DNA from: a virus | Taxonomy: Duplodnaviria > Heunggongvirae > Uroviricota > Caudoviricetes | Length of the DNA: 64,000 nt | Virus record (IMG/VR): IMGVR_UViG_3300026549_000047 | Coordinates: 52,158-116,157 of that record | Strand: one strand, 5' to 3' | Part shown: piece by piece, positions 16,338 to 45,340 of the stretch | Layout of the letters: every line of letters starts with the position of its first letter | Position numbering within the stretch: position 1 is the first letter of the stretch | The notes under the pieces: model-generated | What the model was told of the DNA's origin: nothing | The model's input: only the letters and a program-made list of their open reading frames with translations | The model's database searches: none | Made by a program: the position numbers and the translations under genes

Positions 16338-16622
16338 ATGTTGATGTGGCATAGTTAAGTAATTAACTAGTGAAAAGGTTGTGAACTCGTAAATACGAGG
16401 TGTGCTAAAAAAATAGTGCTAACGGTGGAAAGCTAAGTTCCTAAAAAATTAGGAATATGCCAATACCGTGCTAAGCTTGGAGTTAATCCGAGAAAGTGTA
16501 ACGACTATCCCTTCATGGGAGTAGGTTTAGGGTGAAATTCCCTATTCCGAAGTGCAACCTATCCGCAATAGTACGGATAATGATATAGTCTAATCCCAGA
16601 AAGAAATGATGGGTAGTAAATG
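16338..16622 (+). mobile_element. group I intron 2 of DNA polymerase gene (285 nt, ORF-less)
   Basis: Splits motif B: exon 2 ...RKRFKTI | FLGVLYG exon 3. Intron follows a U at 16337 and ends with G at 16622. Length 285 is divisible by 3, consistent with both exons sharing a genomic frame. R GTAACGACTATCCC (16503-16516), S GATATAGTCTAAT (16589-16601), then a P9 hairpin ATCCCAgaaagaaatgaTGGGTA. Confidence 0.7.
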
Positions 16623-17025
16623 ATTCTTGGGCGTTTTATATGGCCTAGGTAAGCAAAGCCTTGCGGAAAGACTTGATGCTTCTGTTGAAGAGGCAGAGGA
16701 TATTATACAAGGTCTTTATAAATCTTTCCCACAGCTCAGACATTACGTGGATTCACAGGGACAATATCCTCTAGATCACGATGGATATATTAGAACAATG
16801 TTAGGAGATAAACTTAGACTGAGAGAGTACTATGATTATCTTCCTAAAGCAAAAAATGATAGAGAAAAGAATAACTTAATTGCTCGTATTAAACGACTTG
16901 GTGTGAATCTTCCTATACAAGGAGGTACAAGCACTATAATGGCTCATGGATTTGATAATAATATTCGTGTGTCTATTAAGGAGGGATGGAGTCAGCCGTT
17001 ACAGCCAATTATAACGGTTCATGAT
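16623..17025 (+). CDS. DNA polymerase family A: exon 3 (motif B GVLYG ... PIQGG ... motif C VHD)
   Basis: FLGVLYGLGKQSLAERLDASVEEAEDIIQGLYKSFPQLRHYV...NLPIQGGTSTIMAHG...IITVHD matches Pol I NFGVLYG...FP....Y...A.N.PIQG.AAD....HDE. The ORF track starts at an internal TTG. Confidence 0.7.
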
Positions 17026-17152
17026 CAGATTAGGTCATGTAATTAAGAAGAATTGCTGGAATCTTAATAAGAAATCAGCAAACATAATTAATGTTTCAAT
17101 GACTGTGTATTTTAGCAAGAAGATACAGTCTGCCCTCAAGTTGAGGCTTGAG
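17026..17152 (+). mobile_element. group I mini-intron 3 of DNA polymerase gene (about 127 nt), inserted in motif C between HD and E
   Basis: Exon 3' end CAUGAU pairs perfectly with intron IGS GUCAUG (17033-17038), including the U.G at the splice site. P element AAUUGCUGGAAUC (17050-62), Q AAAUCAGCAAAC (17075-86). R UUCAAUGACUGUGUAU (17094-109) pairs with S AAGAUACAGUCUG (17122-134), a P7 covariation GACUGU/ACAGUC. P9 hairpin CCUCAAguUGAGG. Intron ends at G17152, so the spliced reading is ...ITVHD|ENTSNTNLIPVEH, restoring HDE and a LVFEVH-like strand. Confidence 0.7.
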
Positions 17153-17551
17153 GAAAATACGTCTAATACAAATCTCATCCCTGTTGAGCATATTTTTGAT
17201 ATACTTGCTTTCTATCAGAAGAATTATACGGATTATTGTGCTCAATGTGGACCTAAAATTCGTCTACTATTTGACTTGCTTGTAGGATTTGGTTATGAAT
17301 CAGCATGTCCTCTTAAGCAGATAGATGAAAATACGATAGAATTTTCAGGTCCTGCATCTAATATAATCTTAATTTACGATAAAATCATGAAGTGTAAGCA
17401 CATAAAGGTTGAGTGTAATAAGACTAGAGAAGAGATTATGGATTCTAGAAAGATGATCACTGATCCATATTATAGAACTATTCTCGAAAGTGGATGTTCT
17501 ATAGAAAAGGATACTTCTGATATCAAGGTTCAGTTCCATAAATTAAGCTAA
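17153..17551 (+). CDS. DNA polymerase family A: exon 4 (C-terminal ~130 aa after motif C)
   Basis: ENTSNTNLIPVEHIFDILAFYQKNY...KIRLLFDLLVGFGYESA aligns with Pol I ELVFEVHKDDVDAVAKQIHQLMEN...LDVPLLVEVGSGENW, with matching spacing. The ORF track's 17021..17551 has a spurious N-terminus made of intron sequence. Confidence 0.65.
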   Translation, partial: ENTSNTNLIPVEHIFDILAFYQKNYTDYCAQCGPKIRLLFDLLVGFGYESACPLKQIDENTIEFSGPASNIILIYDKIMKCKHIKVECNKTREEIMDSRKMITDPYYRTILESGCSIEKDTSDIKVQFHKLS

Positions 17552-23750: not shown

Positions 23751-23822
23751 GGACCGGTAGCTCAGTGGTAGAGCGGATGTTTGAAGGGCATCGCGTCGGT
23801 GGTTCAATTCCATCTCGGTCCA
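23751..23822 (+). tRNA. tRNA-Phe (GAA)
   Basis: Canonical cloverleaf: acceptor GGACCGG/TCGGTCC; D arm GCTCAGTGGTAGAGC; anticodon loop TT-GAA-GG; T arm GGTGGTTCAATTCCATC; discriminator A. Confidence 0.85.
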
Positions 23823-23828
23823 CGAGTT

Positions 23829-25613
23829 ATGAAGAAGCTTATTTTATTTGTAACTTCTTTTGCTTTAATGATGTCCTGTATGAGTCACGACCTCGATACA
23901 ACACAGGGGCAAGGAAGTGATGTGAAAGAGAACGTTAAAAATATTTTTGGCGTTGAGTTTAGTGAGAACCAAGATTGGAAGACAGCTTTTTCTAGCAGTG
24001 TAAGTGTTCGAGTTAATCCTGGTGATGGTGTCAATAAAATTCAAATTATGGCACTTATCAAAGAGGATGACGAGAACCAATGTCTTAAAGTTCTCAACGA
24101 ATTTAACTTAACCAGAGAGACCTTTGTTAAGCTAAATTATGATGCTCCTAAGGATAACTTAGGTTTGTACGTTACATATATAACTTCTTCTGGATCTTAC
24201 CATTTCGTAGAGATCAAGGGAGATGAGGTTAGTATGCCCTCAAAGACTAGGAGATTGACAAGATCGTTTAACCCTAGTGGATATAATTTGCCGACAGGAG
24301 ATTTCTTTATTACATCCTCTGAGGAATCTTATGCCAATAAACGTGGCTGGGTTCCTGGTGAAATGCTTTATCAGTATTCCACTCAGAAAATGGATGCTGA
24401 AGAATATGATGATGAGTATAAAGAAACCCTTCGACTCTTAGTATTCTCTTATTTTAAGAACGGTAGAAAGTATAATAACCTTCCACTTGTTAAGCAGACT
24501 GGATATTACAATGAGAAAATCTATCCTATCACAACGGGAGATGATCCGATTGTATTATCACCAGTCTACAAGAATGATGGTGGTTATCAGGAGGTTGAAA
24601 ATTCTGACTTGTACTACTATTACTTTAAAGAAGAGGACCTAGGAAGTGATCCAGTTGGTTATATTGAGAGTCTTCCTAAATACAAAGCCATTCAATTGAA
24701 TGAATGTATTAAAGGAGATGATGTAATTAGTAAACATGCTTCCTACGCACTTATGTATTGGGGAGACGGTGTTCCTGTAGTAGGTGAGACTCAAGGATCT
24801 TTTCAGTTCCCGAAGGGGTACAAGATCGGTTTCATGATTCGAGCTAAAACGGAAGCAGAAGGAAAAAAGAAGCAGGGTGAACTTTATGGTGATGGTCGCC
24901 TTAATAATCATGTTAATAACTATGGAAACTTCAAGTCATCTAAGCTTGGCGAGGATGGTCCTAGAATGGCATGGTTAACGGTAAACAATAAAATGCTTCT
25001 TTGTTGTGAATCAGGAACAGACACAGATTTCAATGATATTATCTTTGAAGTAGAGGGAGGTATTGAAGGACTTATCGTCATCCCTGAGATCGAATCTAAT
25101 TTCTACGTATTCTGTTATGAAGACCAGAGATTAGGTGATTATGATCTTAATGATGTAGTTTTGAAAGGACGAAGACTTAGTGACACGAAAGTAGAGTATA
25201 CACTTATGGCTTGTGGTGCTTTGGATGAGCTCTTTATCTATAATGTAGAGGGCAAGCGAATAAAGCATGACAAGGAAGTACATTCTATATTTGGTAGAAC
25301 AAAGCCAGAATTCGTTAATACCCTTAAGAATGATAACACCCCATTCGTAGTTGATACAATTACAGTGACTAGTAGTTTCAGTTTTCTTAATGCTGATACT
25401 CAACCTTACCTGTACGACAAAACTAAGAATTGGGAAGTTCGAATAGCAAGAGAGGGACAAGATCCTCATGCTATTATGATCCCCTACGACTTTAAGTGGC
25501 CCTTAGAAAGAATTTGTATTAATAGAGCTTACTTGAAGTTTAATGAATGGGGAACAGGTTTAGTTACCTCTACGGATTGGTATAAATATCCGGAGGAAGA
25601 CAAAGTATGGTGA
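23829..25613 (+). CDS. putative lipoprotein (large, secreted)
   Basis: ATG at 23829 gives MKKLILFVTSFALMMSC, a lipobox with Cys. About 595 aa; no catalytic motif recognised. The ORF track start at 23781 overlaps tRNA-Phe and is unlikely. Confidence 0.6.
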   Translation: MKKLILFVTSFALMMSCMSHDLDTTQGQGSDVKENVKNIFGVEFSENQDWKTAFSSSVSVRVNPGDGVNKIQIMALIKEDDENQCLKVLNEFNLTRETFVKLNYDAPKDNLGLYVTYITSSGSYHFVEIKGDEVSMPSKTRRLTRSFNPSGYNLPTGDFFITSSEESYANKRGWVPGEMLYQYSTQKMDAEEYDDEYKETLRLLVFSYFKNGRKYNNLPLVKQTGYYNEKIYPITTGDDPIVLSPVYKNDGGYQEVENSDLYYYYFKEEDLGSDPVGYIESLPKYKAIQLNECIKGDDVISKHASYALMYWGDGVPVVGETQGSFQFPKGYKIGFMIRAKTEAEGKKKQGELYGDGRLNNHVNNYGNFKSSKLGEDGPRMAWLTVNNKMLLCCESGTDTDFNDIIFEVEGGIEGLIVIPEIESNFYVFCYEDQRLGDYDLNDVVLKGRRLSDTKVEYTLMACGALDELFIYNVEGKRIKHDKEVHSIFGRTKPEFVNTLKNDNTPFVVDTITVTSSFSFLNADTQPYLYDKTKNWEVRIAREGQDPHAIMIPYDFKWPLERICINRAYLKFNEWGTGLVTSTDWYKYPEEDKVW

Positions 25614-31252: not shown

Positions 31253-32767
31253 ATGGTAACTTACATTATTATTGGAGCAATTTTATTGCTATTTGTATTA
31301 GTTGCGTCGATGTCTTACGTCAAGGCTCCTCCCTCGTATGCCTTCGTGATCTCTGGTATCAACAAGGAACCTCGTGTGCTCATTGGTCGTGGTGGATTCC
31401 GTCTGCCATTCCTGGAGCGCCTGGATAAGGTTTATCTTGGTCAGGTCAACGTAGATGTACGGACTGAAGAAGACGTTCCCACATCTGACTTTATTAATGT
31501 AGCTGTGGACGGCTGCTGTAAGGTGCGCGTTATTCCTTCCTCAGAGGGTATTCGTCTGGCTGCAAAGAACTTCCTTAACGCGAAAGCAGAGAATATCTCT
31601 CAACAGTTGAAGGACACCTTGCAGTCTAATCTTCGTGAGATTGTAGGTACCATTGACCTGAAGTCTCTTAATCAGGATCGTGATGGTTTCGGAAAGAAGG
31701 CCGAGTTGAGTGCATCCAAAGATATGGAGAAACTCGGTATTGAGATTCTTTCATTCAATATTCAGTCTATCACTGATCGTGAAGGTCTTATCAAGGACCT
31801 GGGTGCTGACAATACAGCCCGCATTAAGAAGGACGCCGCCATCAACAAGGCTAACGCAGAACGTGACGTAGCCAAGGCAAAGGCTCTTGCTGATCGTGAG
31901 GCTAATGAAGCTCGTGTTGATGCTGATACTGCTATCGCCGAGAAACAGAATGAGCTTGCCTTGAAGAAGGCCGCCCTTAAACAGAAAGCAGATACTGCTC
32001 AGGCTGATGCCGACGCTGCCTATGCTATTCAGCAGCAGGAACAGCAGAAGACTATCAACATCAAGACCGTCGAAGCTCAGATTGAGCAGACTCGTCAGGA
32101 GAAAATTCTCTCAAAGGAGCAGATTGAAATTAAGCAGAACCAGCTGACTGCAGAGGTTGAGAGAAAGGCTGATGCTGAGAAGTATAAGACTGAGAAGGAT
32201 GCACAGGCTGCCCTTGAGACTCGTAAGCGTAAGGCTGAGGCCGAGCGTTATGAGGCAGAACAGCAGGCACAGGCTAAGAATGCTGAAGCTGAGGCTAGGA
32301 AGTATGCCATGGAGCAGGAGGCGGCTGGTATCAAAGCTAAGGGTGAAGCCGAGGCATATGCCATCCGAGAGAAAGGTAAAGCTGAAGCAGAAGCAACGGC
32401 TGCTCGTCTCGCTGCAGAGGCTGAAGGTATGGACAAGAAAGCTGAGGCTTTCAAGAAGTACAATGATGCTGCTATCACTCAGATGATCGTTGAGCAGCTC
32501 CCAGGTATGGCTGAGTCTATCGCCAAGAGCATTGCCGGTGTTGGTAGTATCAATATCTACAGCACGAATGGTGGCTCTGGTCTGGAGTCTGTGGCAGGTT
32601 CTGTGCCTGTCATGATCAAGCAGGTCATGGATACGGTGAAGAGTGCAACCGGAGTCGATATGGCTGGTGTCATTAAGGCCGGTAGCATTGAGGCTCAGAC
32701 GGACAGAAATATTAACGTAACTGGAATCCCAGGTGGTGCTCCAGCTACTCCGACGCAAGAAGAATAA
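31253..32767 (+). CDS. flotillin-like SPFH/band-7 protein (N-terminal membrane anchor, SPFH domain, long Ala/Glu/Lys-rich coiled coil)
   Basis: TM helix IIIGAILLLFVLVA; SPFH-like block VISGINKEPRVLIGRGGFRLPFLERL...; about 200 aa of EA/AEA-type coiled-coil repeats typical of flotillin FloT/YuaG. Local GC is visibly higher (about 50%) than the surrounding genome. Confidence 0.8.
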   Translation: MVTYIIIGAILLLFVLVASMSYVKAPPSYAFVISGINKEPRVLIGRGGFRLPFLERLDKVYLGQVNVDVRTEEDVPTSDFINVAVDGCCKVRVIPSSEGIRLAAKNFLNAKAENISQQLKDTLQSNLREIVGTIDLKSLNQDRDGFGKKAELSASKDMEKLGIEILSFNIQSITDREGLIKDLGADNTARIKKDAAINKANAERDVAKAKALADREANEARVDADTAIAEKQNELALKKAALKQKADTAQADADAAYAIQQQEQQKTINIKTVEAQIEQTRQEKILSKEQIEIKQNQLTAEVERKADAEKYKTEKDAQAALETRKRKAEAERYEAEQQAQAKNAEAEARKYAMEQEAAGIKAKGEAEAYAIREKGKAEAEATAARLAAEAEGMDKKAEAFKKYNDAAITQMIVEQLPGMAESIAKSIAGVGSINIYSTNGGSGLESVAGSVPVMIKQVMDTVKSATGVDMAGVIKAGSIEAQTDRNINVTGIPGGAPATPTQEE

Positions 32768-32777
32768 AAATAGAGAA

Positions 32778-32822
32778 ACCTTAGGGGACGTTTAAATCCT
32801 CTAAGGCTCTCTTTTTATTTTC
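32778..32822. terminator. bidirectional rho-independent terminator between convergent genes
   Basis: 10-bp stem CCTTAGGGGA...TCCTCTAAGG, followed by CTCTCTTTTTATTTT on the plus strand and preceded by A/T-rich sequence. Confidence 0.55.
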
Positions 32823-33456
32823 ACTCTCCTCGGTAAATCTCCTCAGCCTCACGCCTCAAATCGCGAATCCGGAAGAATCTATCAACGGTATTGTTGTAGG
32901 TAATATTATGAACTTTATAGTCCTTATCTCCTGCATCATAACTTATGATTATATCTTCTGGTCGAACAGTAGATGCCTCTAAGATGAGACGAAGCTGTTC
33001 TAAGTCCACGTACTTTTGAGTAAGACCTGGTTGAATTTCAGCCAAGGTTAAGTGTGGAGTGTAGTTTTTGAAAGTAGGTTCAATACCATACTTGGTCAGG
33101 AGTTTCTCGTTAAACTCTGAGAGTACCTTAAACCACCAAGTATCTTCCTTTAATTTCAGAACTACATAACCACTATCATTTTCAAAATTTCCTAACTCGA
33201 AGAGATCGAAGACGGGATAAACCTCTCCATAACTCTTCAAGTTGACTAATTCTGAGTTAAGTGACTCCGGAGAGTCAAACATAACATCAGTCTTATCAAT
33301 AAATCGATCACGGGCATATAGAATTGTGATGTGAGATTCAAATTCTATGCCAGTGTCCTTAAGATCTTCTGCCTCAAAAACCGTAGCAAGTGAGACAGGG
33401 GTCTGTAAGTCACAGGCGAGCATTACACAGCTCGTTACTTTCTTATCGTTTTCCAT
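32821..33456 (-). CDS. 2H phosphoesterase superfamily protein (LigT / cyclic-phosphodiesterase / Acb1-like fold)
   Basis: Two H-x-T-x motifs about 85 aa apart (HITILYA and HLTLAEI) in a 211-aa protein, the diagnostic arrangement for the 2H family. Confidence 0.6.
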   Translation of the reverse strand: MENDKKVTSCVMLACDLQTPVSLATVFEAEDLKDTGIEFESHITILYARDRFIDKTDVMFDSPESLNSELVNLKSYGEVYPVFDLFELGNFENDSGYVVLKLKEDTWWFKVLSEFNEKLLTKYGIEPTFKNYTPHLTLAEIQPGLTQKYVDLEQLRLILEASTVRPEDIIISYDAGDKDYKVHNITYNNTVDRFFRIRDLRREAEEIYRGE

Positions 33457-33464
33457 ATCTCATA

Positions 33465-33596
33465 TTACTTTTGATTTTTTAAGCGGAACTTTACCTTCAT
33501 ATCACCAAGACGGCTCTTGAGCGATGAGCCTCCCTGATTATAACCCTTTGAGTCGGTTACCGTGAGTCCCAAACCAAGCAAGTGATTTAGGAATCG
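33465..33596 (-). CDS. rpoB: RNAP beta subunit: terminal exon (tentative)
   Basis: RFLNHLLGLGLTVTDSKGYNQGG... aligns with the beta C-terminus AYTLQEMLTVKSDDVNGR. It follows an omega-G at 33597 (aaucag|cga). The track ORF 33465..33674 starts in intron sequence. Confidence 0.45.
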   Translation of the reverse strand, partial: RFLNHLLGLGLTVTDSKGYNQGGSSLKSRLGDMKVKFRLKNQK

Positions 33597-34583
33597 CTGA
33601 TTGTCTTCGGCTGCGGTATCACCTCGGGCTGAGTCAAGAAAGTCTTTAGCATTTCTCGAAAGATATGCTGACAATTCCCGTAAAATTCTCTACACTATAT
33701 GTAGAGACAGACTATATCTTCAGCAATGAAAGCTGACTTGTACATAGTCGTTGTGTATAGCTTTAATTTTCTGGCAAAAATCTATATCCACTTTCAGGGT
33801 GTTTAGTTATTAAGCTTTTAACTACTTTTCCTGATAATCCATTAGCTTCCCCTGCTTTTGCTAAGCTTGGAAATATTCGACCTAACGGATCAACTACCTT
33901 TTGGAGCTTTCTTCCTTTTCTTATACTACTAAGCTTAGCTTTTTGTTCATCAGACATTGGTACACCTTTGTTCCATGCCTTTTGTCCTTTGTGGCCTTCA
34001 GATTGATTTAATAAGTAGTCTATATCTCTTTTTCGATTTTTCATATAATTAGACATTTTTTGTCTTTGGCTATTACTTACAATTCTTTTTCTATTAGCTT
34101 CTGCAATCTTCTGTCCGAAACCTTCAGGCATCTTTCTACCTCTATGAGCCTTTGCTGCCTGTTCTCTATAATATGCTATTTCTCTGGTAGAAAATCGTTT
34201 CTCACCTTCTCTACCACCTTTTTTATTAAGAGCCATAGCATTTACAGCCTCTGCTAATCCGGGGCACTTTGGATATATTTCATGTAGTAGTTTATGGACC
34301 AATACATGTTCTTTCGCTGTTAAGTATACAGTATTAGATACATCATCTGTTCCTCCACAGCATTTAGGTATAATATGATGAAATTCATAATATTCCCCAC
34401 ATACTTTTTCTCGATTCTTGGCTCTATTTATTATACTATCGTGCCAAGTTTTATATTTATAATCTGGATTTTTATACTGCATCATCTTTTTATTATATGC
34501 AATATGTTCAGGTCTAGATTTATTTGCCATCTGTTTAATTTTATTTTAACTATATTACTGGTTTTGTTTTTACAGTTCCAGTA
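33597..34583 (-). mobile_element. group I intron (beta intron 5) carrying an HNH homing endonuclease ORF
   Basis: The 5' splice site is about 50 nt upstream of HNH ORF 33763..34530, whose 3' end overlaps the P/Q region. R ACACAACGACUAUG (33757-33744), P8 CAGCuuucauuGCUG, S GAUAUAGUCUG (33735-33725), P9 UCUCUACAuauagUGUAGAGA. It sits between beta motifs GQKIGEIIWFHKPENY and RFLNHLL. Confidence 0.55.
33763..34530 (-). CDS. intron-encoded HNH homing endonuclease with NUMOD-like repeats
   Basis: YYEFHHIIPKCCGGTDDVSNTVYLTAKEHVLVHKLLHE is an HNH motif. Repeated basic ...EANRKR...SDEQKAKLSSIRKGRK... modules follow. Confidence 0.75.
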   Translation of the reverse strand: MANKSRPEHIAYNKKMMQYKNPDYKYKTWHDSIINRAKNREKVCGEYYEFHHIIPKCCGGTDDVSNTVYLTAKEHVLVHKLLHEIYPKCPGLAEAVNAMALNKKGGREGEKRFSTREIAYYREQAAKAHRGRKMPEGFGQKIAEANRKRIVSNSQRQKMSNYMKNRKRDIDYLLNQSEGHKGQKAWNKGVPMSDEQKAKLSSIRKGRKLQKVVDPLGRIFPSLAKAGEANGLSGKVVKSLITKHPESGYRFLPEN

Positions 34584-34694
34584 ATTCTCAGGTTTATGAA
34601 ACCAAATAATTTCACCGATCTTTTGACCCGTTTGTCTATAACGACCACGGCCCATGATAGGATCATCTTTAAACTCATTCACATCTACGCCAAA
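34584..34694 (-). CDS. rpoB: RNAP beta subunit: 37-codon micro-exon between two introns
   Basis: Encodes FGVDVNEFKDDPIMGRGRYRQTGQKIGEIIWFHKPEN, matching the universally conserved beta C-terminal block [25 protein letters not shown]. It is hidden inside track ORF 34482..34724. Confidence 0.5.
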
Positions 34695-34867
34695 CATCGA
34701 TGATGTTACCTTGTTACTGTACATCTATCATTCGCTAAATTATTTTAGTGCTAAGACTATATCACCTAACAGTACATAGTCGTTGTGGAATTTTATTCTA
34801 GCTGATTAGACTTAATCTTTCCAGCTATTAAACTGATTTTACATCCCCATGAATGTAATCTAGGGAT
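34695..34867 (-). mobile_element. group I mini-intron (beta intron 4, about 173 nt, ORF-less)
   Basis: Follows exon ...VGYMSLIELYH, which parallels beta VGYMYMLKLNHL. P UAAUAGCUGGAAAG, Q AAUCAGCUAG, R CCACAACGACUAUG (34790-34777), S GAUAUAGUCUUAG (34764-34752), P9 CUAAAuaauUUAG. An omega-G at 34695 is followed by the micro-exon. Confidence 0.55.
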
Positions 34868-35452
34868 ATGGTACAATTCTATGAGGGACATATAACCCAC
34901 ACTAAGTGGTTTATCTACCTCAATGTATTTACCTTCCATGTTTTTCTTGATGATTTCAAATTCGTCCTCGGGGAGGTTTTCTTTAAGCTCATCAAGATCA
35001 GCAACAGTATTTGTTGGAATGAGTATTTTTGATTGTGGTGTAACACCAAGTTCCTGTGCCCACTGATCCACCAGCTGCGGAGTAAACTTAGTGCTATACG
35101 AACCGACGTTCATGTAATAGACGTCCTCAAGCTTATGAGTATTGTGATATTCAATAAACTCGTCGAGGGTCATATTATCAAAACGGCCGGGATAATATTT
35201 TTGTACGAGAGGAAGAATAGTATTTCGCTCAGTTTTACTACCATTCTTACGTTCTTCTACGATGTCATGAATACGAACACAACAGGTAGAGAGAAGTTGT
35301 TCCATGTTCACGCTGGGGATTTTACGATTGATTGTACTGTATGGGTTCATGACCACCTCGACTACTCGTTTTTTCCCAGTTCCATTCTCTACCATGATCG
35401 GCATCTGGCTGTCTGGGAGAATTTTGCTTATAACTCCCTTACCTCCATCAAG
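34868..35452 (-). CDS. rpoB: RNAP beta subunit: exon (LDGGKGVISKI...NPYS...VGYMSLIELYH)
   Basis: Upstream extension of track ORF 34793..35404: LDGGKGVISKILPDSQMPIMVENGTGKKRVVEVVMNPYSTINRKIPS matches beta [42 protein letters not shown]. The track's tail after ...LYHI is intron read-through. Confidence 0.7.
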
Positions 35453-35596
35453 TCAATTACCAAACCTTTGTTTAGTATTAAGACTATATCTTCGTAAATA
35501 CATATAGTCGTTGGAGACATTCCTATCTTGCTGATTTGAACTTAATATCGTCCCAGCAATTAATACTTTTAACAGACCTGGAATTTAATCTGTTTG
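35453..35596 (-). mobile_element. group I mini-intron (beta intron 3, about 144 nt, ORF-less) inside the [13 protein letters not shown] catalytic-region motif
   Basis: Flanking exons join as ...IKRTNLMIG | LDGGKGVISKI, the same length as E. coli [15 protein letters not shown]. The upstream frame is closed by TGA at 35453-55. The intron holds all four cores: P AUUGCUGGGA, Q AAAUCAGCAAG, R CCAACGACUAUAUG (35516-35503), S GAUAUAGUCUU (35490-35480), then P9 ACAAAggUUUGG. Confidence 0.65.
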
Positions 35597-36881
35597 TCAC
35601 CTTACTACCAATCATCAGGTTAGTTCTCTTGATCAGTCTCACTCTAATCGTATAAACCACCTTGTAATTTTTGTCTGACAGACTTATCGGATCAAGCCTA
35701 TCAGCTGCGATATACTCGGGATATCTATCATAAATAACCTTTCTATCCTTGTTCTTTTCGTATTCACTTATCACATCCTGTGACGTATGAGAGAAAGAGA
35801 GATCAGGTCGCTTAACACCTTTACCTGGCGTACGAACAACTTTATTCTCCTGGATCATAACATCACTTACATAAGCTTCGTCAATATTGGGAGGAACTAT
35901 TAAGGAATTTTCGATCGTATACTCAGAGAAATCTCTTCCCTCACCAAACAAGCTACCAAGCTTATCCTGGAGTGCTTTATTAATTTCGTCCAACCTAACA
36001 GCTTTGTACACTGTCAAGACAGGATCTTTACTTTTTACTTTAGTACCGATGGGAGCAATCCACTTAAGAGCTTCTGTTGACTTAACGTCATACATTAGAT
36101 CTATAATGGAGAAGCTACACATCTTCTTTGCAAATGATTCGCTAACAACGAGAGCATCCTCATTAACATAGCCAAACATTGCATGGAATAGAACTAGTGC
36201 GTTTAGTCCTGCCTTATACGTATCAGCTTCCAAGTTAACTGCACCCGTAATAACGTCACCTTTCTTAACCTTCTGGCCAACTTTGACCTTAGGTTCAATA
36301 AAGACGTCGACATCATTAACGGATTGAATTGCAGTACGTCTGGGAACTTCAACCGTATCTTTATCCGGAAGTTCAATAATAACAGAATCCTCCGTTATCT
36401 CTTTCACTACTCCCTCATCTTTTGTAAACTTTTCATTCAGAACGTTGTCCTTGAGCTCTTCTACGTTGCCAGTATCAACCAATGGTCTTTCGGCACCGGG
36501 GAGAGGTATAGATTGTTTGAGCATCGAGCTACCCATGTGAATTCGCACACTATCTGTATAGTTAACGAATGGAATTCTTCGTACCTCTTCCGATAAACGA
36601 TAATCGGGGTGAAGATCCACTAACTCAACTTCCTCCACGGGAACACGTTTTCTTTTCAATCTATGTTTAACCTCTACCATACCCTCAGCATCTGGCTTAA
36701 GAGTATTAGTCTCGTAATCAACATACTCACTAGCACATACTTTTTTGTTTAGATAGTCGAAATATGGAATTGTTATTTTCACAAAATCTGGACTATATAC
36801 GTCGAAAAGTATGTCAGTGTCCGTTACATGTACGGATTTCGTCAAGGCATTTTGTTTTCCAACATTTTGATTTATCGGTGT
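35597..36881 (-). CDS. rpoB: RNAP beta subunit: central exon (fork/active-site region)
   Basis: ...SVHVTDTDILFDVYSPDF...FVNYTDSVRIHMGSSMLKQSIPLPGAERPLVDTGNVE...NALVLFHAMFGYVNEDALVVSESFAKK...IKRTNLMIG matches beta ...[23 protein letters not shown]...[24 protein letters not shown]...GDKMAG. The frame opens right after the UAG at 36884-82, which contains the omega-G. Confidence 0.7.
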
Positions 36882-37985
36882 CTAAATTATCTAAGTATCA
36901 ACTACTTAGAATAGACTATATCTTTAGAAATTGTATATAGTCGTTGAATAATTTTAACTAAGAATATTTAATCTATATATGAAAACCCTTTTTCGTTATT
37001 TTTAGCCCATCTTCCTATAACCACTGGACTATGATTAGTTGCTTGCCCTGCTTCTTTAACAGAGTCGTAGATAGTACCATCAGGGCCTTGAATTTTTCTT
37101 ATACAAGATATTACGCTAGTATATTTTCCGGTATATTTAAACCCTTTCTCCGGATGTCTGTTTATCCAGTTTCTTAAAATTCCTACAGTAATATTGTTCT
37201 CTCTAGCACAGCTAGCTAAAGTAGGATATATGGTTCCATCAGGTCCCTCAATTTCTTTTCCTTGAGGATGTCCGGAATTCCTGTTTGAGATCGTTGTTTT
37301 AAATTTTTCATCTCTAGGTCCAGTAGATTTTCCTAATTTGGCAAGTGATTGCTTTTTCCGGGCTTCATCACTAGCTGATGTACCAAAAGTGCGGTTCTCG
37401 ACACCATATTTAATATGTTTCTTCCACTTTTCATATCCTTCTTTTGACATTGGGCCGCGCTTCTTTCCTTTAGTAGATTTTGAGATATTTTTACCAATAT
37501 TTGAAGCGATTAATTTTCTTTTTTCATGCCACAGCTCTCTATAGTATGCTGCAGTTGATACGGAGATTTTAATGTTCTTTCCCAAAGCCTCTGCTACTCT
37601 AAACATATAATCTACGGCACATGCTAATTTCGCATTATCTGGGTAACATCTTTGTAATAACATATGAGCAATTATATGCTCTTTTGCAGTTAATAAAACA
37701 TAATTAGACTCTTCATCTTTACCTCCCATACACTTTGGCAGAATATGATGTCTCTCCGTGTAATAATCTAATCTTGTTTTATCTAACCCTCTATGTAGGG
37801 ATTTATTTATCAAATTATTATATGTATTATAATACCAAACCCTATTATAATACTCTATCTCTTCTATTGACATTACTTAGTTTATTTTAATTATTGCTGA
37901 TCTGACTTTTGCCTTTCCAGCAATTAATTTCAATTTAGGAGCCTACCACCTAAACTTAAGCTCCAACACAAATCAAGTCGGAAAA
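36882..37985 (-). mobile_element. group I intron (beta intron 2) with HNH homing endonuclease ORF in P6
   Basis: P2 hairpin GGAGC...GCUCC; P AAUUAAUUGCUGGAAAG (37935-37918); Q AGAUCAGCAAU (37905-37895); HNH ORF 36968..37873; R UUCAACGACUAUAUAC (36950-36938); S AGAUAUAGUCU (36924-36914); P9 UCUAAGUAguugaUACUUAGA; omega-G in ...aauuuag|aca at 36882. The 5' boundary is approximate. Confidence 0.5.
36968..37873 (-). CDS. intron-encoded HNH homing endonuclease with duplicated C-terminal DNA-binding modules
   Basis: RHHILPKCMGGKDEESNYVLLTAKEHIIAHMLLQRCYP is an HNH motif. The module GPDGTIY...A...N occurs twice (IEGPDGTIYPTLASCARENNI and IQGPDGTIYDSVKEAGQATNH). Confidence 0.75.
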   Translation of the reverse strand: MSIEEIEYYNRVWYYNTYNNLINKSLHRGLDKTRLDYYTERHHILPKCMGGKDEESNYVLLTAKEHIIAHMLLQRCYPDNAKLACAVDYMFRVAEALGKNIKISVSTAAYYRELWHEKRKLIASNIGKNISKSTKGKKRGPMSKEGYEKWKKHIKYGVENRTFGTSASDEARKKQSLAKLGKSTGPRDEKFKTTISNRNSGHPQGKEIEGPDGTIYPTLASCARENNITVGILRNWINRHPEKGFKYTGKYTSVISCIRKIQGPDGTIYDSVKEAGQATNHSPVVIGRWAKNNEKGFSYID

Positions 37986-38057
37986 CGACGAATTGTAAGC
38001 TACACTTTGAGGTATTTGGATCTTACCAGTTAAGCTCTGCAAATTTCATTTTATTTC

Positions 38058-38206
38058 TCTCAATTTTCTTGAGACCTTTTAGACTATATCACCTTTGTTC
38101 TATCATATAGTCGTTGAAACTTTTGTCTGCCGATTGTAGTTTTTCTCTTTCCGGCAATTATACAGAAAGCCACAAATCTTTCTATGGCATTAATACCCGG
38201 GCTTAT
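38058..38206 (-). mobile_element. group I mini-intron (beta intron 1, about 150 nt, ORF-less)
   Basis: P2 AGAAAGauuuguggCUUUCU; P UAAUUGCCGGAAAG (38160-38147), close to the consensus AAUUGCGGGAAAG; Q AAUCGGCAGAC (38134-38124); R GUUUCAACGACUAUAUG (38118-38105); S GAUAUAGUCU (38090-38081); P9 CUCAAgaaaaUUGAG. The track ORF 38084..39058 reads through it: P encodes IIAGKR, R encodes FQRLYD, and the stop lies inside S. A short micro-exon is expected between about 37986 and 38057. Confidence 0.5.
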
Positions 38207-39058
38207 CTGCAGATCACTTCCTCCCTTACTAGCATCGCTACTGCCTTTCCAATATCTAACGCACAGCATTGTCAAGACATTAACTTGCTCTTGTAGTTTA
38301 TTATAACGGGACCAATAATTCATGATCTTCTTTCTGGTTCCCCAGTAGTTTCTCTTATTGGATCCGTTAAACAAATAGTTCATAAACCCACTTGGAATGG
38401 ACTCGATTCTCTTATCAATCACCAAATCCTTCACACGATCATCTCCAAAAGCCAGACACTCTTCAATCAAGCGCTTTGTTATGAACTCAGGTTTGTAGTC
38501 TAAGTCTAACTTAATTTCCAGCTTTTTAATCTGACGGTCAGTGAGTCTAAGGGCCTCTCTTTCAAGACCCGTCACATTGTCGATTTCATCCAGAGTATAT
38601 TCTCGAACTCGCTCCTGCAAGCCAAGCTCTGGATTAGTTCGTTTAATCTTGAGGACACCTTTCCTGATATCATAGATACGATCATAGTCAAAGTTGATAT
38701 CATACCTTCCAGTTCCAGACATATTGATTCTACAATCGTAGTCATTGCCCAGAGTATTGGTTGCAATACGATATGCTCCCTCGATAATGAAAGCACCATC
38801 AATCTCTTTGGGGACCTCAAATTCAGAAAACCGAACCTCATCATCATAGTTTATGGTATACTCCAAGATAACCTTGTGAGTAGCCGTCAATCCATTCTCA
38901 ATATAGTAAGATGCGGGACGAGGAGTTTCCTCTTCGATATGCCAATTCAAGTTTGTTAACTTGTACTTGGGATTATACGCATCAATTTCACTACCAAAGA
39001 ATCGATCTACAATAAGTTTTGCTCCTGTGTTTCTGAAATACTGATTAAAGTTACTCAT
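38207..39058 (-). CDS. rpoB: RNAP beta subunit: first exon (N-terminal about 284 aa)
   Basis: ...GDDRVKDLVIDKRIESIPSGFMNYLFNGSN... parallels the beta [26 protein letters not shown] block. The start ATG directly follows the TAA of the upstream gene. Confidence 0.7.
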
Positions 39059-39701: not shown

Positions 39702-40550
39702 TTATTTACTGTCAAGTTTATCATTCAGGAGAAGGTTCAATACCGTACTTGTCATGGTATCGCCTTCCAAATTAAGTTCACCCTTGAGGGCACGACCAAT
39801 AATTCTGGACGACCAACCATATGACAAAGTTGTAAAGAAGGACTTACGATTAAGAATAGCATTCTGGGTTCCTTGATATTCAATCTCCTCAACTTTATTT
39901 GTCTTGGGATCAACTACCATGTTAGTAAGACCAGAGAATACCATTTCAACAATTTCCTCTTGCATGTCACTAGGACTTACAATACCGCTCTTCTGAAAGT
40001 CATTACTTGTTAATGAATAATATTGATTTCTAAATATATTAAATGCCCCGTTAATATCTCCGGGCAGGTCAGCCGTAACCTGTCTCATGTTCACAACTCC
40101 TGAACAGAAGCGTTGGTATTTCTTGATCTCTGTGCCGTCAGGGAAGTAGTATATTGACTCGGGGGAGTATGCATACTGACGTCCGCCAATGAACACTTCA
40201 ATCTCACCACGTTTGTTTTCGGTGTAGTGAATAGTTCCAGCTTCATACGCGTAACAATCGGCGACAGTTACCGTATCTTTCTCGAAATATTTCGTGCCTG
40301 AGCTACCCTTAGCATTCATTAATCGAATAACTGAGTTTAGCTTATATACTGGAGATGTAGTATGATAAGCTGTTCCTAAAAGTTCTCCCGCTGCATATTT
40401 CTGCTTGGGAATACCAACCCAGTTGTCTGGTCTTGGATAACGAAGCTCTCCACCTCGTACTTTAAGAACAAGCCACCTACCATCTTCTCTCAGTTCACAA
40501 TCTTTAGGAGCATATAGATTTCCTGAATTATCGATGACTCTTTCATGACC
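39702..40550 (-). CDS. rpoC: RNAP beta' subunit: last exon (trigger-loop insertion, TL C-terminal half, C-terminal clamp region)
   Basis: GHERV...LPGDINGAFNIFRNQY resembles TL2 ITGGLPRVADLFEAR. ...SFFTTLSYGWSSRIIGRALKGELNLEG resembles FQETTRVLTEAA..GKRDEL.GLKENVI.G. It follows an omega-G at 40551 after the P9 hairpin AAUCCUAAAgagaUUUAGGAU. Confidence 0.7.
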   Translation of the reverse strand, partial: GHERVIDNSGNLYAPKDCELREDGRWLVLKVRGGELRYPRPDNWVGIPKQKYAAGELLGTAYHTTSPVYKLNSVIRLMNAKGSSGTKYFEKDTVTVADCYAYEAGTIHYTENKRGEIEVFIGGRQYAYSPESIYYFPDGTEIKKYQRFCSGVVNMRQVTADLPGDINGAFNIFRNQYYSLTSNDFQKSGIVSPSDMQEEIVEMVFSGLTNMVVDPKTNKVEEIEYQGTQNAILNRKSFFTTLSYGWSSRIIGRALKGELNLEGDTMTSTVLNLLLNDKLDSK

Positions 40551-41705
40551 CAAAATTATCCTAAATCTCTTTAGGATTTAGACTATATCTTATTAAATAA
40601 CATATAGTCGTTGAATTATATACTTAAAAGTTTTAGCTGTTCTTGTATAAATGATAATATCTCTTCTTTCTTCTCAATCAAAAATCCCTCGTTTCCTATA
40701 ACAATAAATTCTTTAAATTCCATTTTAACGCTGTATTCTAATTCTGCTATCTTCTCTCTAGTAGATTTTGCTAGTACAGTACTTTTTCCATAGCTATATC
40801 CATGATACCCTCTTAAGTCAATACGATTACTAGTATTTCTACTAACACCCAGCTTAAATGCATTAGAATTTTCTAATTCTACTAAATAATATTCACAAAT
40901 ATCAAATAGATCTCCTTTGTTTAGGAACATTTTTCTGTCGATAGCTATTAATTCATCAACACTAAATGTTTTATCTACCGGCAAACCAATATCTATTGCC
41001 GCCTTATCATAGGAATCTCTTGTTGTTTGTTTAAGTTTCTCAATGTTAGTCTCTGCTTTCGGAATCCAAGGTTTCCTAACATCATCAGGTGAAAATATAC
41101 TATTTCCATCTGCTATTTGTTTCTTTGCATTAATACTGAGCTTTTTGCGCCACTCTTTTGATCTTCTGTTTGCCTTCTGAAGACCAGTTACTCCTCTTTT
41201 ATAATTTTCTCTCTGAGCAACTTGAGTAGCAGCATTTGCTAGGTGGTCTTTACAACCATCCATAAAATAGTTCATCCATTTTCCATTTTTAATTGGAACC
41301 AAAGATCTAAATACTCTTGGTTGGTTACATTTTTCTCCAGTATATGGATTTTTATAAGAACATATAGGTATTTTAGACTCATCCCCTTCAAATACTACTA
41401 TTATATAGTACTCAAATTCTGTAAGTCCGTACTTATTAAATAAGTATTGTTTTCGTTGAGAAGTAGAGAGTTCTTTACAGTCATCTAGTTGATCTAATAT
41501 TTGAAAATATTTAGATCGAGGACTAACCAGGTTAGTCCTACTGTATTCAATTCTTCCAGGACAAGACACGATATACTCTTTTTCTTTATAGATAACTTTC
41601 TTTTTCTTCATAAATTTTAATTTAAAATATTCTTTAAGTATCTCTAAACTGCTGGTAATGATATTTTCAATTCCAGCAATAATTTATTTTTATACACAGC
41701 TAATC
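40551..41705 (-). mobile_element. group I intron (beta' intron 4) with endonuclease-like ORF in P6, inserted in the trigger loop
   Basis: Upstream exon ends ...TTQSILGLKHGF(D), a TL1 GEPGTQLTMRTFHIGG-like block. P AAUUAUUGCUGGAAUUG (41672-41661); Q AUUACCAGCAG; ORF 40616..41611; R UUCAACGACUAUAUG (40620-40604); S GAUAUAGUCU (40590-40577). Confidence 0.55.
40616..41611 (-). CDS. intron-encoded putative homing endonuclease (family not assignable; basic NUMOD-like central region)
   Basis: 331 aa ORF filling the P6 position of the intron. Lys/Arg-rich helix-like modules (KANRRSKEWRKKLSINAKKQ). No HNH, GIY or LAGLIDADG motif recognised. Confidence 0.5.
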   Translation of the reverse strand: MKKKKVIYKEKEYIVSCPGRIEYSRTNLVSPRSKYFQILDQLDDCKELSTSQRKQYLFNKYGLTEFEYYIIVVFEGDESKIPICSYKNPYTGEKCNQPRVFRSLVPIKNGKWMNYFMDGCKDHLANAATQVAQRENYKRGVTGLQKANRRSKEWRKKLSINAKKQIADGNSIFSPDDVRKPWIPKAETNIEKLKQTTRDSYDKAAIDIGLPVDKTFSVDELIAIDRKMFLNKGDLFDICEYYLVELENSNAFKLGVSRNTSNRIDLRGYHGYSYGKSTVLAKSTREKIAELEYSVKMEFKEFIVIGNEGFLIEKKEEILSFIQEQLKLLSI

Positions 41706-42047
41706 AAAACCGTGTTTTAAGCCTAAGATTGATTGCGTAGTTGCCTCCGAGAAGGACGAACCTGCAGCCAAACCTAAACCACTGCCATCTGGTGTATCTG
41801 TTTTCAGGAAATTTTTGCTAAGTAAGTCCGGAGTTATGATATCGAGGTCGCCTTCTCTTTTCATAACTATTGATCTTACCGGTACTAAGTCATCCTCATT
41901 CTGACGTACAACATCACCATATACTTTGCCATTAGGCGCAGTACGGCCCGTTGCTACGTATCGGGGAATAAGGAGTCCCTCATTATTTGGATCACTGCCC
42001 TCTGCACTGAACTTATAATTGTTCAAAAGGAACGTGATCTGTCGGTT
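41706..42047 (-). CDS. rpoC: RNAP beta' subunit: exon 4 (region between bridge helix and trigger loop)
   Basis: NRQITFLLNNYKFSAEGSD...GLGLAAGSSFSEATTQSILGLKHGF; the C-terminal part matches the TL1 consensus E.GTQ(L/S)(T/I)(M/L)..H.G. Confidence 0.6.
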
Positions 42048-43206: not shown

Positions 43207-44391
43207 CATATATAGACTAGACTATATCATAAGTTCTCATGAATAGTCGTTGAATTAATTTAATGTAGTTTAACAGAAATTATACATAGTAGTCGTATAG
43301 ATACAGAGATCTATTTAATCTTTTACTGTCTCTTCTCTCATAAAACTTTCTTTTGATATATAGATCATCTTCCGTCAAAGTTATATATTTAACGTTGTTC
43401 TTTCTACACCACTTTTTTCCAGCCAACCTTTTATTAATAACCTTCTCCGTGTTTAATAAATTTTTAGCTTTAATTTCCACCATAAATTTATCACCAGATA
43501 AAGTAGTTACTAAGAAGTCTGGATAATAATAATGTGATTTGTCCCCTATTTTATATTTTATAGGATCTGGTATAGACAAATCAACTATATAGTGACTCGA
43601 TTCTATAATCGTTAAAAAGTCTTTTTCATATGAAGATAAGTAACCTATCTCAGTATTAAACTTAGTTGAGACAAATTTTCCAGATTCATAATAGTTTCTA
43701 GATTTTATTTTTCCTTTTTTGGATTTGGAAATTTTTTCTTTTGCCTCTTCAGATAATTTAAAATGGTATCCCCTAGGTCTTTTTAACCGCTGTTCTTCTG
43801 TCAGTTTCTTACCTTTTTTAGCAAGACTTAAATTTTTCTTATTCTCTTCTGACAAAGGTTTCCCTTTTAGTTTAATAGAGTTAAGTTCTGCAGTATGTCT
43901 ATACCTACAATTCTTGCAATAAGTCTTATATCCGGGATATCTATTTTTCTTAGGATCCCTAATAAACAAAAACATACACTCTTTCCCACAAAACTGACAT
44001 TTAGGTCTATCATTTACACTACTTATACCTAAAACTACTAAATCGAAATATATTTGTATATTTACACCTTCTTTTAAATTCTTAAGTAACCAGGGTCCTT
44101 TTGCCCAGGCATCTTTATTGTTTTTATTAATAAAAGATGGTATAAAATATTCCCAAAATCTTCCCGATTTCCTACAATAATTCTCTATTCCAAGCCCAAC
44201 TCCATTAAATGGGTTTAACTTAGAGTAATATTCATAAAGATCATTCATAAAATTACACTACATTTGTTATTAACTGCTGATCTGTTTTAATACTTTCCAG
44301 CAATTTGTAAGATTTTATAACCCCTAGGTTTTTCAAGGGTTTCGTGATTAAACTCGAAGATATTTTTCAGATTCTTTTTATAAAGCTTGTT
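43207..44391 (-). mobile_element. group I intron (beta' intron 2) with PD-(D/E)xK-type homing endonuclease ORF in P6
   Basis: P AAAUUGCUGGAAAG (44290-44277); Q AACAGAUCAGCAG (44265-44253); ORF 43280..44248; R UUCAACGACUAUUC (43258-43243); S GAUAUAGUCUAGUCUAUAUAUG (43233-43207), ending in the omega-G at 43207 that precedes exon FYIDLRNG. The joined exons ...AKMSPR|FYIDLRNGLANIS have the same length as beta' MMSTNNILSPANG. Confidence 0.6.
43280..44248 (-). CDS. intron-encoded homing endonuclease: Zn-finger + NUMOD3-like repeats + C-terminal PD-(D/E)xK nuclease domain
   Basis: CQFCGKEC...CKNCRYRH zinc finger. Repeats ...SEENKKNLSLAKKGKKLTEEQRLKR... and SEEAKEKISKSKKGK. C-terminus YYYPDFLV...KFMVEIKAK is a canonical PD...(D/E)xK core. 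Confidence 0.6.
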   Translation of the reverse strand: MNDLYEYYSKLNPFNGVGLGIENYCRKSGRFWEYFIPSFINKNNKDAWAKGPWLLKNLKEGVNIQIYFDLVVLGISSVNDRPKCQFCGKECMFLFIRDPKKNRYPGYKTYCKNCRYRHTAELNSIKLKGKPLSEENKKNLSLAKKGKKLTEEQRLKRPRGYHFKLSEEAKEKISKSKKGKIKSRNYYESGKFVSTKFNTEIGYLSSYEKDFLTIIESSHYIVDLSIPDPIKYKIGDKSHYYYPDFLVTTLSGDKFMVEIKAKNLLNTEKVINKRLAGKKWCRKNNVKYITLTEDDLYIKRKFYERRDSKRLNRSLYLYDYYV

Positions 44392-44589: not shown

Positions 44590-45340
44590 CTGATTATTAA
44601 GCATTTAGCTTTATCATCAGATAGACTATATCTTTGTAATCGTACATAGTCGTTGAACTTACTCTAGTTTTGTACTTCAAATTTTAAATTTTTATTCTTC
44701 CTAACTGAGTCTTTCAAGAACTGATACACCTCTTTTTTCTTTGATTTCTCAAGGAACTCAGTATATCTAATTCCATTGGGATCCAGTTTCGTATAATCTT
44801 GGAACTTGATCATTACATCAAATTCAAGATCAGCCAAATCATCAGTAGGCCCTGAAATAATTGCTATCACACGACCACCTAATATCTGTTTTGTTGTTCT
44901 GCGTTCCCAATCTTTTGAGAACCCAACTTTTATACTTTGTGGGAATTCGAGTAGATATATATACCCATCAGCTCCCTGGAATTTATTATGTAAGAGATTT
45001 CTGTTATTAACTCTCATAGCATACTCAGATCCATAACCACGAGCGGATTTATCTAAGAGATTTCTCTCTCGAATTTTTTCCATCCTATCATGTTTTTCCT
45101 GGCTCTGATTCCACACTCCAATCTTCGACGTCCCAAGGTATCTACCTTGTTGGTGAAGTTGTTTCATGTGTTCACTTCGATTCCATCCTAGGTCTGAGTA
45201 TGTTTTTCTTTTTAATACTACCATGCTCAACGCCTTTCTTTTTTTTTTCTAACAAAACTTAAGTAAGCTGCTGATTTTAAGGATCCACCCTTAATCCCAG
45301 CAATTCATCAATTTATACGTACCAATTAAATACTTAGCAC
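44590..45340 (-). mobile_element. group I intron (beta' intron 1) with T5orf172 (GIY-YIG superfamily)-type ORF in P6
   Basis: P GAUGAAUUGCUGGGAUUAAGG (45311-45295); Q UUAAAAUCAGCAGCUUAC (45280-45263); ORF 44664..45230; R UUCAACGACUAUG (44660-44647); S GAUAUAGUCUAUC (44636-44624); P9 AAGCuaaaUGCUU; omega-G at 44590 (aauaaucag|agu). Confidence 0.55.
44664..45230 (-). CDS. intron-encoded T5orf172-domain protein (putative GIY-YIG-superfamily homing endonuclease)
   Basis: GYIYLLEFPQSIKVGFSKDWERRTTKQI...EFDVMIKF fits the T5orf172 pattern GY(V/I)Y(I/L)L.....KIG.T.....RR. The start is probably the ATG at 45224. Confidence 0.6.
   Translation of the reverse strand: MSMVVLKRKTYSDLGWNRSEHMKQLHQQGRYLGTSKIGVWNQSQEKHDRMEKIRERNLLDKSARGYGSEYAMRVNNRNLLHNKFQGADGYIYLLEFPQSIKVGFSKDWERRTTKQILGGRVIAIISGPTDDLADLEFDVMIKFQDYTKLDPNGIRYTEFLEKSKKKEVYQFLKDSVRKNKNLKFEVQN

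Follow-up and report, generated by a model that had tools for sequence, protein, structure and literature searches.

A 2H phosphoesterase gene fixed behind the RNA polymerase β gene in a clade of jumbo phages: a possible Acb1-like enzyme with an additional C-terminal module

What is the function of a small 2H protein encoded at the very end of an RNA polymerase gene in a large tailed phage? The question arises from a stretch of 64,000 nucleotides of the caudoviricete record IMGVR_UViG_3300026549_000047, hereafter called the window, in which an initial annotation had recognized a protein with two HxT motifs and had proposed that it could serve either in RNA repair or, like the phage enzyme Acb1, in the degradation of cyclic nucleotides used as immune signals. 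The elements of the protein are located as follows.

32821..33456, minus strand: 2H phosphoesterase gene, an ATG-initiated open reading frame of 211 amino acids, including the stop codon at 32821-32823
33313..33333, minus strand: first catalytic motif, HITILYA, residues 42-48 (H42, T44) of the N-terminal lobe, from the translation
33034..33054, minus strand: second catalytic motif, HLTLAEI, residues 135-141 (H135, T137) of the C-terminal lobe, from the translation
32824..32979, minus strand: family-specific C-terminal module, residues 160-211 (about 50 amino acids), delimited by secondary structure and pLDDT

The assignment to the 2H superfamily is borne out, since both motifs are present and the AF2 model (pLDDT 92) has the bilobed α+β fold of these enzymes, with structural matches that are exclusively 2H proteins. 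A database search at E ≤ 1e-3 retrieved 131 homologs, none of which carries an informative name; the longest of their contigs reach 430 kb. The His-x-Thr pair pointed out at the outset stays intact under closer alignment of 50 family sequences: H42, T44, and H135 are invariant, while residue 137 is T in 35 proteins and S in 15, and all 50 thus contain one H-x-T/S-x motif per lobe, as defines the superfamily. Also L138, A139, and E140 of the second motif are invariant in the family alignment, and the histidine corresponding to H42 is kept in all 45 out-group proteins and all 5 Acb1 sequences. That the product is an active 2H phosphodiesterase we consider very likely; given its tetrad and fold, it is probably a catalytically competent enzyme of the metal-independent kind, with two His-x-Thr motifs.

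The surroundings of the gene are defined by the following features.

33457..33464, minus strand: spacer of 8 nucleotides, TATGAGAT in mRNA sense, between the β stop codon and the 2H start codon, read from the sequence
33465..33677, minus strand: last β exon (E6), with stop codon 33465-33467, from tblastn of the L006 β protein
32762..32826, minus strand: terminator-like hairpin and U-run, beginning at the 2H stop codon and common to the convergent flotillin gene, from RNA folding

Adjacency to the RNA polymerase locus, used only as a landmark in the initial annotation, turns out to be a conserved property. The C-terminal end of β lies directly upstream of the 2H gene in 83 of the 83 related loci that have upstream sequence, and the converse search from the β C-terminus, which reached close relatives only, finds the 2H gene directly downstream in 79 loci out of 79. 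The arrangement extends to the deepest branches, represented by L083, the 2H protein of which is 33% identical, and by P0181, and the genes downstream of 2H vary among lineages. From β stop to 2H start the gap ranges between −4 and +12 nucleotides in all 84 related loci, being mostly an overlap or a single nucleotide, and in the window the two genes are probably coupled in translation. At the other end of the gene, the minus-strand hairpin has a folding energy of −25.4 kcal/mol (z = −5.97; 0 of 200 shuffles equally stable), and a terminator scan of the plus strand gives a match at 32779-32806. Because hairpin and U-run stand just past the 2H stop codon, 2H is the last gene of its transcription unit. 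The minus-strand block around it contains replication and transcription genes rather than structural ones, including another piece of RNA polymerase, a ParM-like protein, and a NAD-dependent ligase; the conserved genes upstream of β, encoding proteins of 391 and 121 amino acids in L006, have no match among PDB sequences.

The coupling with rpoB shows that the 2H gene is co-expressed with the phage polymerase and vertically co-inherited as a core gene of the clade, but it falls short of proving a functional link. The thematic connection that had been drawn with a peptidyl-tRNA hydrolase (Pth) gene and a tRNA cluster finds no support in the comparisons, for linkage to them is not conserved and the β gene is the sole conserved partner. 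The rpoB partnership and the C-terminal module discussed below are both features beyond those noticed initially.

The β gene itself is split in the window, as reconstructed by mapping onto it with tblastn the uninterrupted β protein of L006 (1054 amino acids).

33465..39058, minus strand: RNA polymerase β gene, six exons and five intervening sequences, from tblastn
39058-38183, 38045-37968, 36881-~35587, 35446-34862, 34721-~34608, and 33677-33468, minus strand: β exons
36968..37873 and 33763..34530, minus strand: HNH homing-endonuclease open reading frames within two of the β intervening sequences

The L006 protein matches bacterial RpoB (T. thermophilus, E 8e-32) as well as the nvRNAP of phage AR9 (E 1e-19), which points to a genuine RpoB homolog of bacterial type. 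As to the insertions, those bearing HNH frames measure about 0.9 and 1.1 kb, and the other three, devoid of open reading frames, are of ~137-139 nucleotides and mutually homologous. In these small insertions the P4 and P7 stems exhibit compensatory base changes, and we take the elements around them to be the classical P, Q, R, and S core of group I introns (Cech/Burke consensus); in IVS1 and IVS4, read from the sequence, U ends the 5' exon and G ends the intron. No Rfam intron family was detected in the β gene, either at gathering threshold or at E ≤ 1. A covariance model of the small insertions recovers this core from the HNH-bearing ones, at their 5' ends, and also between other adjacent open reading frames of the window (17020-17165, 40548-40653, 41593-41718, 44235-44342, and 44591-44723). 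All five β insertions are reduced group I-like introns. Splicing by proteins (of the bulge-helix-bulge type), which would make the ~140-nucleotide rpoB insertions a source of 2',3'-cyclic phosphates and so account for the neighboring 2H gene and for RtcB in relatives, was considered and rejected on the basis of the group I core and its compensatory changes, and further because the 2H gene is retained where β is uninterrupted (L004, L006, and L091). Group I splicing yields no cyclic phosphate. Split, intron-rich genes are an already published trait of the 'Jug' jumbo phages of the gut, for which splicing has been validated and a mean intron length of about 206 nucleotides reported (PMC12880540); introns as small as those of the window, nearly devoid of P5, P6, and P8, may be new.

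To which family does the 2H protein belong? The family profiles that it matches all score below their cut-offs.

Pfam Acb1 (PF23474): 17.6 bits, E 0.0032; cut-off 27, below
Pfam 2_5_RNA_ligase2 (PF13563): 15.5 bits; cut-off 27, below
Pfam LigT_PEase (PF02834): 14.3 bits; cut-off 23.3, below
NCBIfam ThpR equivalog (TIGR02258): 24.6 bits, E 1.9e-5; cut-off 65.7, below

Acb1 is the best Pfam match of the window protein. As controls for TIGR02258, ThpR of E. coli scores 149.8 bits and T4 Acb1 gives no match. Within the family, the Acb1 profile recognizes 29 of 50 members at E ≤ 0.01 (best value 2.6e-6) and that of 2_5_RNA_ligase2 recognizes 33. The sole PHROG match, phrog_755 (E 2.9e-5, residues 4-150), is labelled 'RNA ligase' and constitutes an annotation trap: gene 57B of T4, which is Acb1 (PMC9117128), is assigned to phrog 755 in the T4 record, so that the label is misleading for a PHROG to which T4 Acb1 belongs.

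A profile search run exhaustively over 1.84 billion representatives delineates the family sharply, with ~59 clusters (at 50% identity) of full-length proteins of 190-236 amino acids at E ≤ 1e-30. Below this boundary extends a long tail of 2H proteins of 150-200 amino acids, which align solely to profile positions ~5-157 and of which 45 were sampled in an out-group alignment (A4). Matches to phrog_755, 2_5_RNA_ligase2, and Acb1 are found in 44, 41, and 39 of these 45 proteins, respectively. They are the closest relatives outside the family, uncharacterized and found in unrelated genomic contexts, and have in common with it the motifs (S/G)C-x-ML, DL..G.E..H.T(I/L)LY, FEN, and Y.PH.T(L/I)A..G..KY. 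In profile-profile comparisons (hhalign) they also provide a bridge, since the family aligns with A4 over residues 7-159 (99.8%, E 6e-30) and A4 aligns with a five-sequence alignment of genuine Acb1 across both HxT motifs (97.1%, E 6.5e-11); directly, the family reaches Acb1 with 83% (E 8.8e-6) over 52 columns of the C-lobe only. Against E. coli ThpR the values are 1% for the family and 18% for A4, in a test that is handicapped and unequal because ThpR was represented by one sequence. Searches of PDB sequences with phmmer and hmmsearch returned insignificant matches alone (Acb1 E 0.3, AKAP7 E 0.72). Among 50,697 GenBank phage records, megablast of the 6.9-kb neighborhood and tblastn of the 2H protein were both empty, and hence these records hold no annotated relative. 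The family is therefore a distinct subfamily within the phage radiation of LigT-like and Acb1-like proteins, orthologous to neither named family; it is known from metagenomes only, and its 2H core appears to be tied to phrog_755 via the bridging short phage proteins.

Besides its 2H core and its place behind rpoB, this subfamily is defined by its C-terminal module, which in the AF2 model comprises a β-hairpin and a long helix in addition to the last strand of the core. T186, R193, F195, and R196 are invariant in it, and conservation of the segment containing the motif VDRFFR (0.70) equals that of the catalytic lobes (0.66-0.71). The module is missing from the nearest out-group proteins, which align to the catalytic core alone; the short proteins have neither VDRFFR nor rpoB linkage, while in the family the two occur together.

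The comparison of the predicted structure with Acb1 and LigT, suggested initially as a check, yields a ranking in which Usb1 and LigT stand above Acb1, even if every solved structure is remote (Foldseek against PDB and BFVD, TM 0.4-0.5). Usb1 is the best PDB match, the global fold is nearest to Usb1, LigT, and CPDase, and the top viral matches are models of phage proteins annotated as 2'-5' RNA ligase or cyclic phosphodiesterase. Usb1, the U6 snRNA 3'-end phosphodiesterase, is nevertheless a eukaryotic nuclear enzyme with only 9-10% identity to the window protein and no signal at the sequence level, and the likeness may stem from size and fold rather than function. Similarly, the LigT-like cGAMP phosphodiesterases of avian poxviruses (penguinpox and pigeonpox PDE, 9bkq) have 13-14% identity and come from eukaryotic viruses, common descent with our family being supported only at the superfamily level. 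By profile methods, in contrast, the nearest named family is Acb1, which is likewise encoded by phages, stands alone as a 2H enzyme, and has the HxT/HxT tetrad; it has ~150 amino acids and ends in a short flexible lid, whereas the window protein is 60 amino acids longer and has the structured module instead. LigT does not have this extra module either, and the charge of ThpR is opposite (pI 10.5, +7). The 2H fold has acquired new targets more than once, among them 2-5A, cGAMP isomers, and CBASS signals (PMC11410667), and for this reason fold alone is no predictor of substrate. Of the initial annotation, the assignment to the 2H fold is fully supported; between its two alternatives, RNA repair and an Acb1-type enzyme, the evidence is divided. 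Family thresholds are missed on both sides, profiles and charge lean to Acb1, and global fold and some neighbors and fusions lean to RNA ends.

In functional terms, which substrate is then to be expected? Degradation of an immune cyclic nucleotide or oligonucleotide in the manner of Acb1 is the most likely reading, though we would give it somewhat less than an even chance. The profile chain through the short phage proteins favors this reading, as do the acidity of the family and its aromatic residues. The pI of family members is 4.46-5.32, with a median net charge of −14 (about 4.6-4.7 for the window protein), close to Acb1 (pI 4.6-5.4) and far from the RNA-binding ThpR. Experimentally, Acb1 contacts its ligand by stacking of Y12, W74, F107, and W147 and by E141, which reaches adenine N6 (PMC9117128). 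Three of the four stacking aromatics align with conserved aromatics of the family: W74 with F91 (50 of 50 sequences), F107 with F129 (F, Y, or W in 50 of 50), and W147 with Y173 (45 of 50), in an alignment whose C-terminal part is uncertain; Y110 of Acb1 corresponds to Y132. By analogy, the fixed and coupled place behind an unrelated core gene may also speak for an Acb1-like enzyme, because the proven acb1 gene of T4-like phages is placed in the same way: in T4, FBB1, Aes508, and a Vibrio schizoT4 phage, 57B belongs to a conserved dNMP kinase-57A-57B block, adjoining or overlapping the end of 57A, an unrelated gene, in each of the four records. The faster evolution of 2H than of the adjoining β (in L006, 48% vs 67-86% identity) would fit as well. 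This evidence needs to be weighed against a score of 17.6 bits where Acb1 membership takes 27, the E value of 0.3 for Acb1 among PDB sequences, the replacement of Y12 by a cysteine (C10, Cys in 49 of 50), and the variability of the position aligned with E141 (E in 23 of 50). The 60 additional residues with their structured module, the weak match of the family, and not of T4 Acb1, to TIGR02258, and the associations of relatives with RNA repair (RtcB, Rnl1 with kinase, and the CCA-adding fusion) count against it too.

Under the Acb1-like reading, the 2H protein would be translated from the mRNA that also encodes the phage β subunit, probably in a coupled manner, and therefore would be present each time the phage assembles transcription machinery of its own. 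Its likely substrate, a small cyclic nucleotide or oligonucleotide, would be attacked by its own 2'-OH at the adjacent 3'-5' phosphodiester, with base and acid provided by the two catalytic histidines, one each, and the resulting 2',3'-cyclic phosphate intermediate would then be hydrolyzed. A host messenger of the CBASS or type III CRISPR type could thus be linearized before activating its effector. The C-terminal hairpin and helix, with the invariant R193, F195, and R196, may represent an enlarged counterpart of the C-terminal lid of Acb1.

The principal alternative, somewhat less likely, is RNA end-healing: where host anticodon nucleases or other metal-independent RNases have cut tRNAs or mRNAs and left cyclic phosphate ends, a 2',3'-cyclic phosphodiesterase of ThpR/LigT or CPDase type would open these ends, within a broader phage investment in protecting translation by means of tRNAs, Pth, aminoacyl-tRNA synthetases, and RtcB. 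The global fold and the annotations of the best viral structural matches agree with this role, along with the TIGR02258 match and the 33 family members recognized by 2_5_RNA_ligase2, even if the cut-offs are missed widely. Genomic neighbors are also suggestive, for RtcB lies about 8 kb from 2H in L002 and L003 (the P0003 lineage), aminoacyl-tRNA synthetase genes lie just downstream of 2H in L004 and L006, and the window carries a Pth gene and 7 tRNA genes; yet there is no conserved linkage to ligase, kinase, or RtcB, nor any in the Pfam inventory of the window. For RtcB and Rnl ligases, moreover, the 2'-phosphate left by a ThpR-type enzyme is a dead end, and a net charge of −14 is unfavorable to the binding of polymeric RNA. 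Beyond the family, the out-group protein P0189 is encoded about 2 kb from an Rnl1 ligase and a kinase, and in P0197 the 2H domain is fused to a CCA-adding enzyme; since distant relatives are fused also to portal and GNAT proteins, these fusions and out-group neighborhoods point in conflicting directions and decide nothing. Passages of Iyer et al. 2021 (PMC7824862) note 2H enzymes in jumbo phages and propose cyclic-phosphate clearance and RNA repair, and these passages make no mention of linkage to RNA polymerase.

A role linked to transcription itself, in which the protein either assists the phage RNA polymerase as an accessory factor or processes the 3' ends of nascent transcripts, with Usb1-like trimming or cyclic-phosphate chemistry and the C-terminal module mediating association with the polymerase, appears improbable. 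It would account for the unbroken rpoB adjacency in both searches, L083 and P0181 included, combined with downstream genes that change with lineage, as well as for the joint occurrence of module and linkage, the terminal position before a strong terminator, and a top structural match that is an RNA 3'-end exonuclease. However, such a role has no known precedent, the protein is acidic, and the apparent universality may reflect the vertical inheritance of a conserved block seen among close relatives. We have down-weighted the coupling as a sign of transcription-related function, considering that acb1 of T4 and FBB1 is bound equally tightly to 57A. The least probable reading is a scavenger hydrolase for a NAD-derived or other non-canonical cyclic phosphate, a metabolite or signal such as ADP-ribose 1'',2''-cyclic phosphate (the chemistry of plant and yeast CPDase), a 2'-5'-linked oligonucleotide, or free 2',3'-cNMPs; the window contains no Tpt1/KptA, Macro, or OAS-like partner for it, and no subfamily-specific sequence signal points that way, AKAP7_NLS matching 7 of the 45 out-group proteins and no family member.

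A bolder reading can also be formulated, which we hold to be just as improbable as a transcription-linked role: the rpoB-coupled 2H protein with its invariant Arg/Phe/Arg module would be a new type of counter-defense nuclease or polymerase partner, synthesized along with the phage RNA polymerase, that either destroys the larger cyclic oligoadenylates (cA3, cA4, and cA6) made by type III CRISPR or CBASS sensors responding to phage transcripts, or acts on nascent RNA 3' ends at the polymerase. If this were true, gut jumbo phages would have their immune evasion or RNA-end chemistry functionally tied to transcription.

Which phages carry this gene? The relatives are contigs of 200-430 kb from human- and animal-associated metagenomes, the closest of the long ones being 59% identical to the window in 2H and about 78-86% in β. 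Jug jumbo phages of the gut, of 360-402 kb and with Bacteroides or Phocaeicola as predicted hosts, have been reported as abundant in human microbiomes (PMC12880540). Because the size, habitat, and heavy intron load of the relatives correspond to those of Jug phages, we infer that the window belongs to this group. The main text of PMC12880540 does not mention phosphoesterase, Acb1, CBASS, or RNA ligase. What is new is a clade-wide 2H variant in which an additional C-terminal module is conserved and the place behind rpoB is obligatory; its function falls within known territory, nucleotide-signal degradation or RNA-end healing.

Most genes of Jug-type gut jumbo phages have no assigned function, and here is one that is kept throughout the clade and encodes a fold to which viruses have turned again and again for cleaving immune second messengers. 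Whatever its substrate, the gene is a well-defined cloning candidate. Were the protein to heal RNA ends or to work with the polymerase, it would provide a transcription-coupled step of RNA protection. If it is Acb1-like, enzymatic evasion of CBASS and cyclic oligoadenylate defenses would extend to phages probably infecting Bacteroides or Phocaeicola, with a new lid architecture that might alter the range of substrates.

The RNA polymerase beta gene, which lies directly 5' of the 2H phosphoesterase gene (window 33465-39058, - strand), is made up of six exons and five intervening sequences (IVS), located as follows:

38046-38182, - strand, IVS1
~36882-37967, - strand, IVS2
~35447-35586, - strand, IVS3
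34722-34858, - strand, IVS4 (span of the intron itself; the aligned exons leave a gap of 34722-34861)
~33678-34607, - strand, IVS5

Three of the five are devoid of ORFs, measure ~137-139 nt each and are homologous to one another, with group I P/Q/R/S core elements (judged against the Cech/Burke consensus) and compensatory changes; the two larger ones contain HNH endonuclease ORFs. One insertion interrupts a universal beta motif, between GQKIGEM and ELSA. No IVS of the beta gene was detected with Rfam. Intron-rich genes have already been published for the Jug phages, gut jumbo phages with a mean intron length of ~206 nt (PMC12880540), but the mini-introns of the beta gene are markedly smaller than those introns, with P5, P6 and P8 almost absent.

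A covariance model of the mini-introns (R1) was used to search for further sites in the window, and gave these matches (E from 5e-6 to 0.13):

17020-17165, + strand
40548-40653, - strand
41593-41718, - strand
44235-44342, - strand
44591-44723, - strand

Several of them fall within, or bridge, gaps separating neighbouring ORFs on the same strand; therefore, a number of the window's 'genes', probably with those for other RNA polymerase subunits among them, may be exons of larger split genes.

In distant 2H relatives (P0197, P0215 and P0219), related 2H domains occur in fusion proteins, the partners being the head domain of CCA-adding/poly(A) polymerase, a lambda-type phage portal protein, which implies delivery with the virion, and a GNAT acetyltransferase. 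The region 3' of the 2H gene varies among relatives, and also carries aminoacyl-tRNA synthetases of Glu/Gln or Cys/Met type (L004, L006) and a TnpB/Cas12f-like OrfB_IS605 gene:

L002 and L003, ~16417-16654, RtcB (P0003 lineage)
L004, 9175-10749, aminoacyl-tRNA synthetase
L006, 10925-12442 and 13494-14699, aminoacyl-tRNA synthetase and OrfB_IS605 gene

In L001-L003, this downstream region includes the family of a 610-aa DUF4114/DUF4842 protein, encoded in the window by ORF 23781-25613 (+ strand). Because tRNA-Phe (23751-23823, + strand) overlaps the listed TTG start of this ORF, the real start is probably further downstream.

Convergent with the 2H gene, ORF 31253-32767 (+ strand) encodes a 504-aa protein with SPFH/Band-7 and flotillin domains (Pfam E 3e-21 and 3e-10) and a hydrophobic N-terminal segment, which looks like a membrane-scaffold gene, unusual in phage. 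In a single 921-aa ORF (5792-8557, - strand), an N-terminal calcineurin-like, Mre11-like phosphoesterase is joined to an SMC/Rad50-like ATPase, apparently as a fusion of Mre11 and Rad50. Another ORF of the window strongly matches the NADAR domain (E 8e-40); Iyer et al. (PMC7824862) tie NADAR and 2H enzymes to the processing of NAD/ADP-ribose-derived signals.

T4 Acb1, the anti-CBASS protein encoded by gene 57B (L086 418-876), is assigned to phrog_755 despite the label 'RNA ligase' of that PHROG, and several T4-like 57B genes among the matches listed are annotated likewise. The function of a phage 2H gene can be misread from this label.
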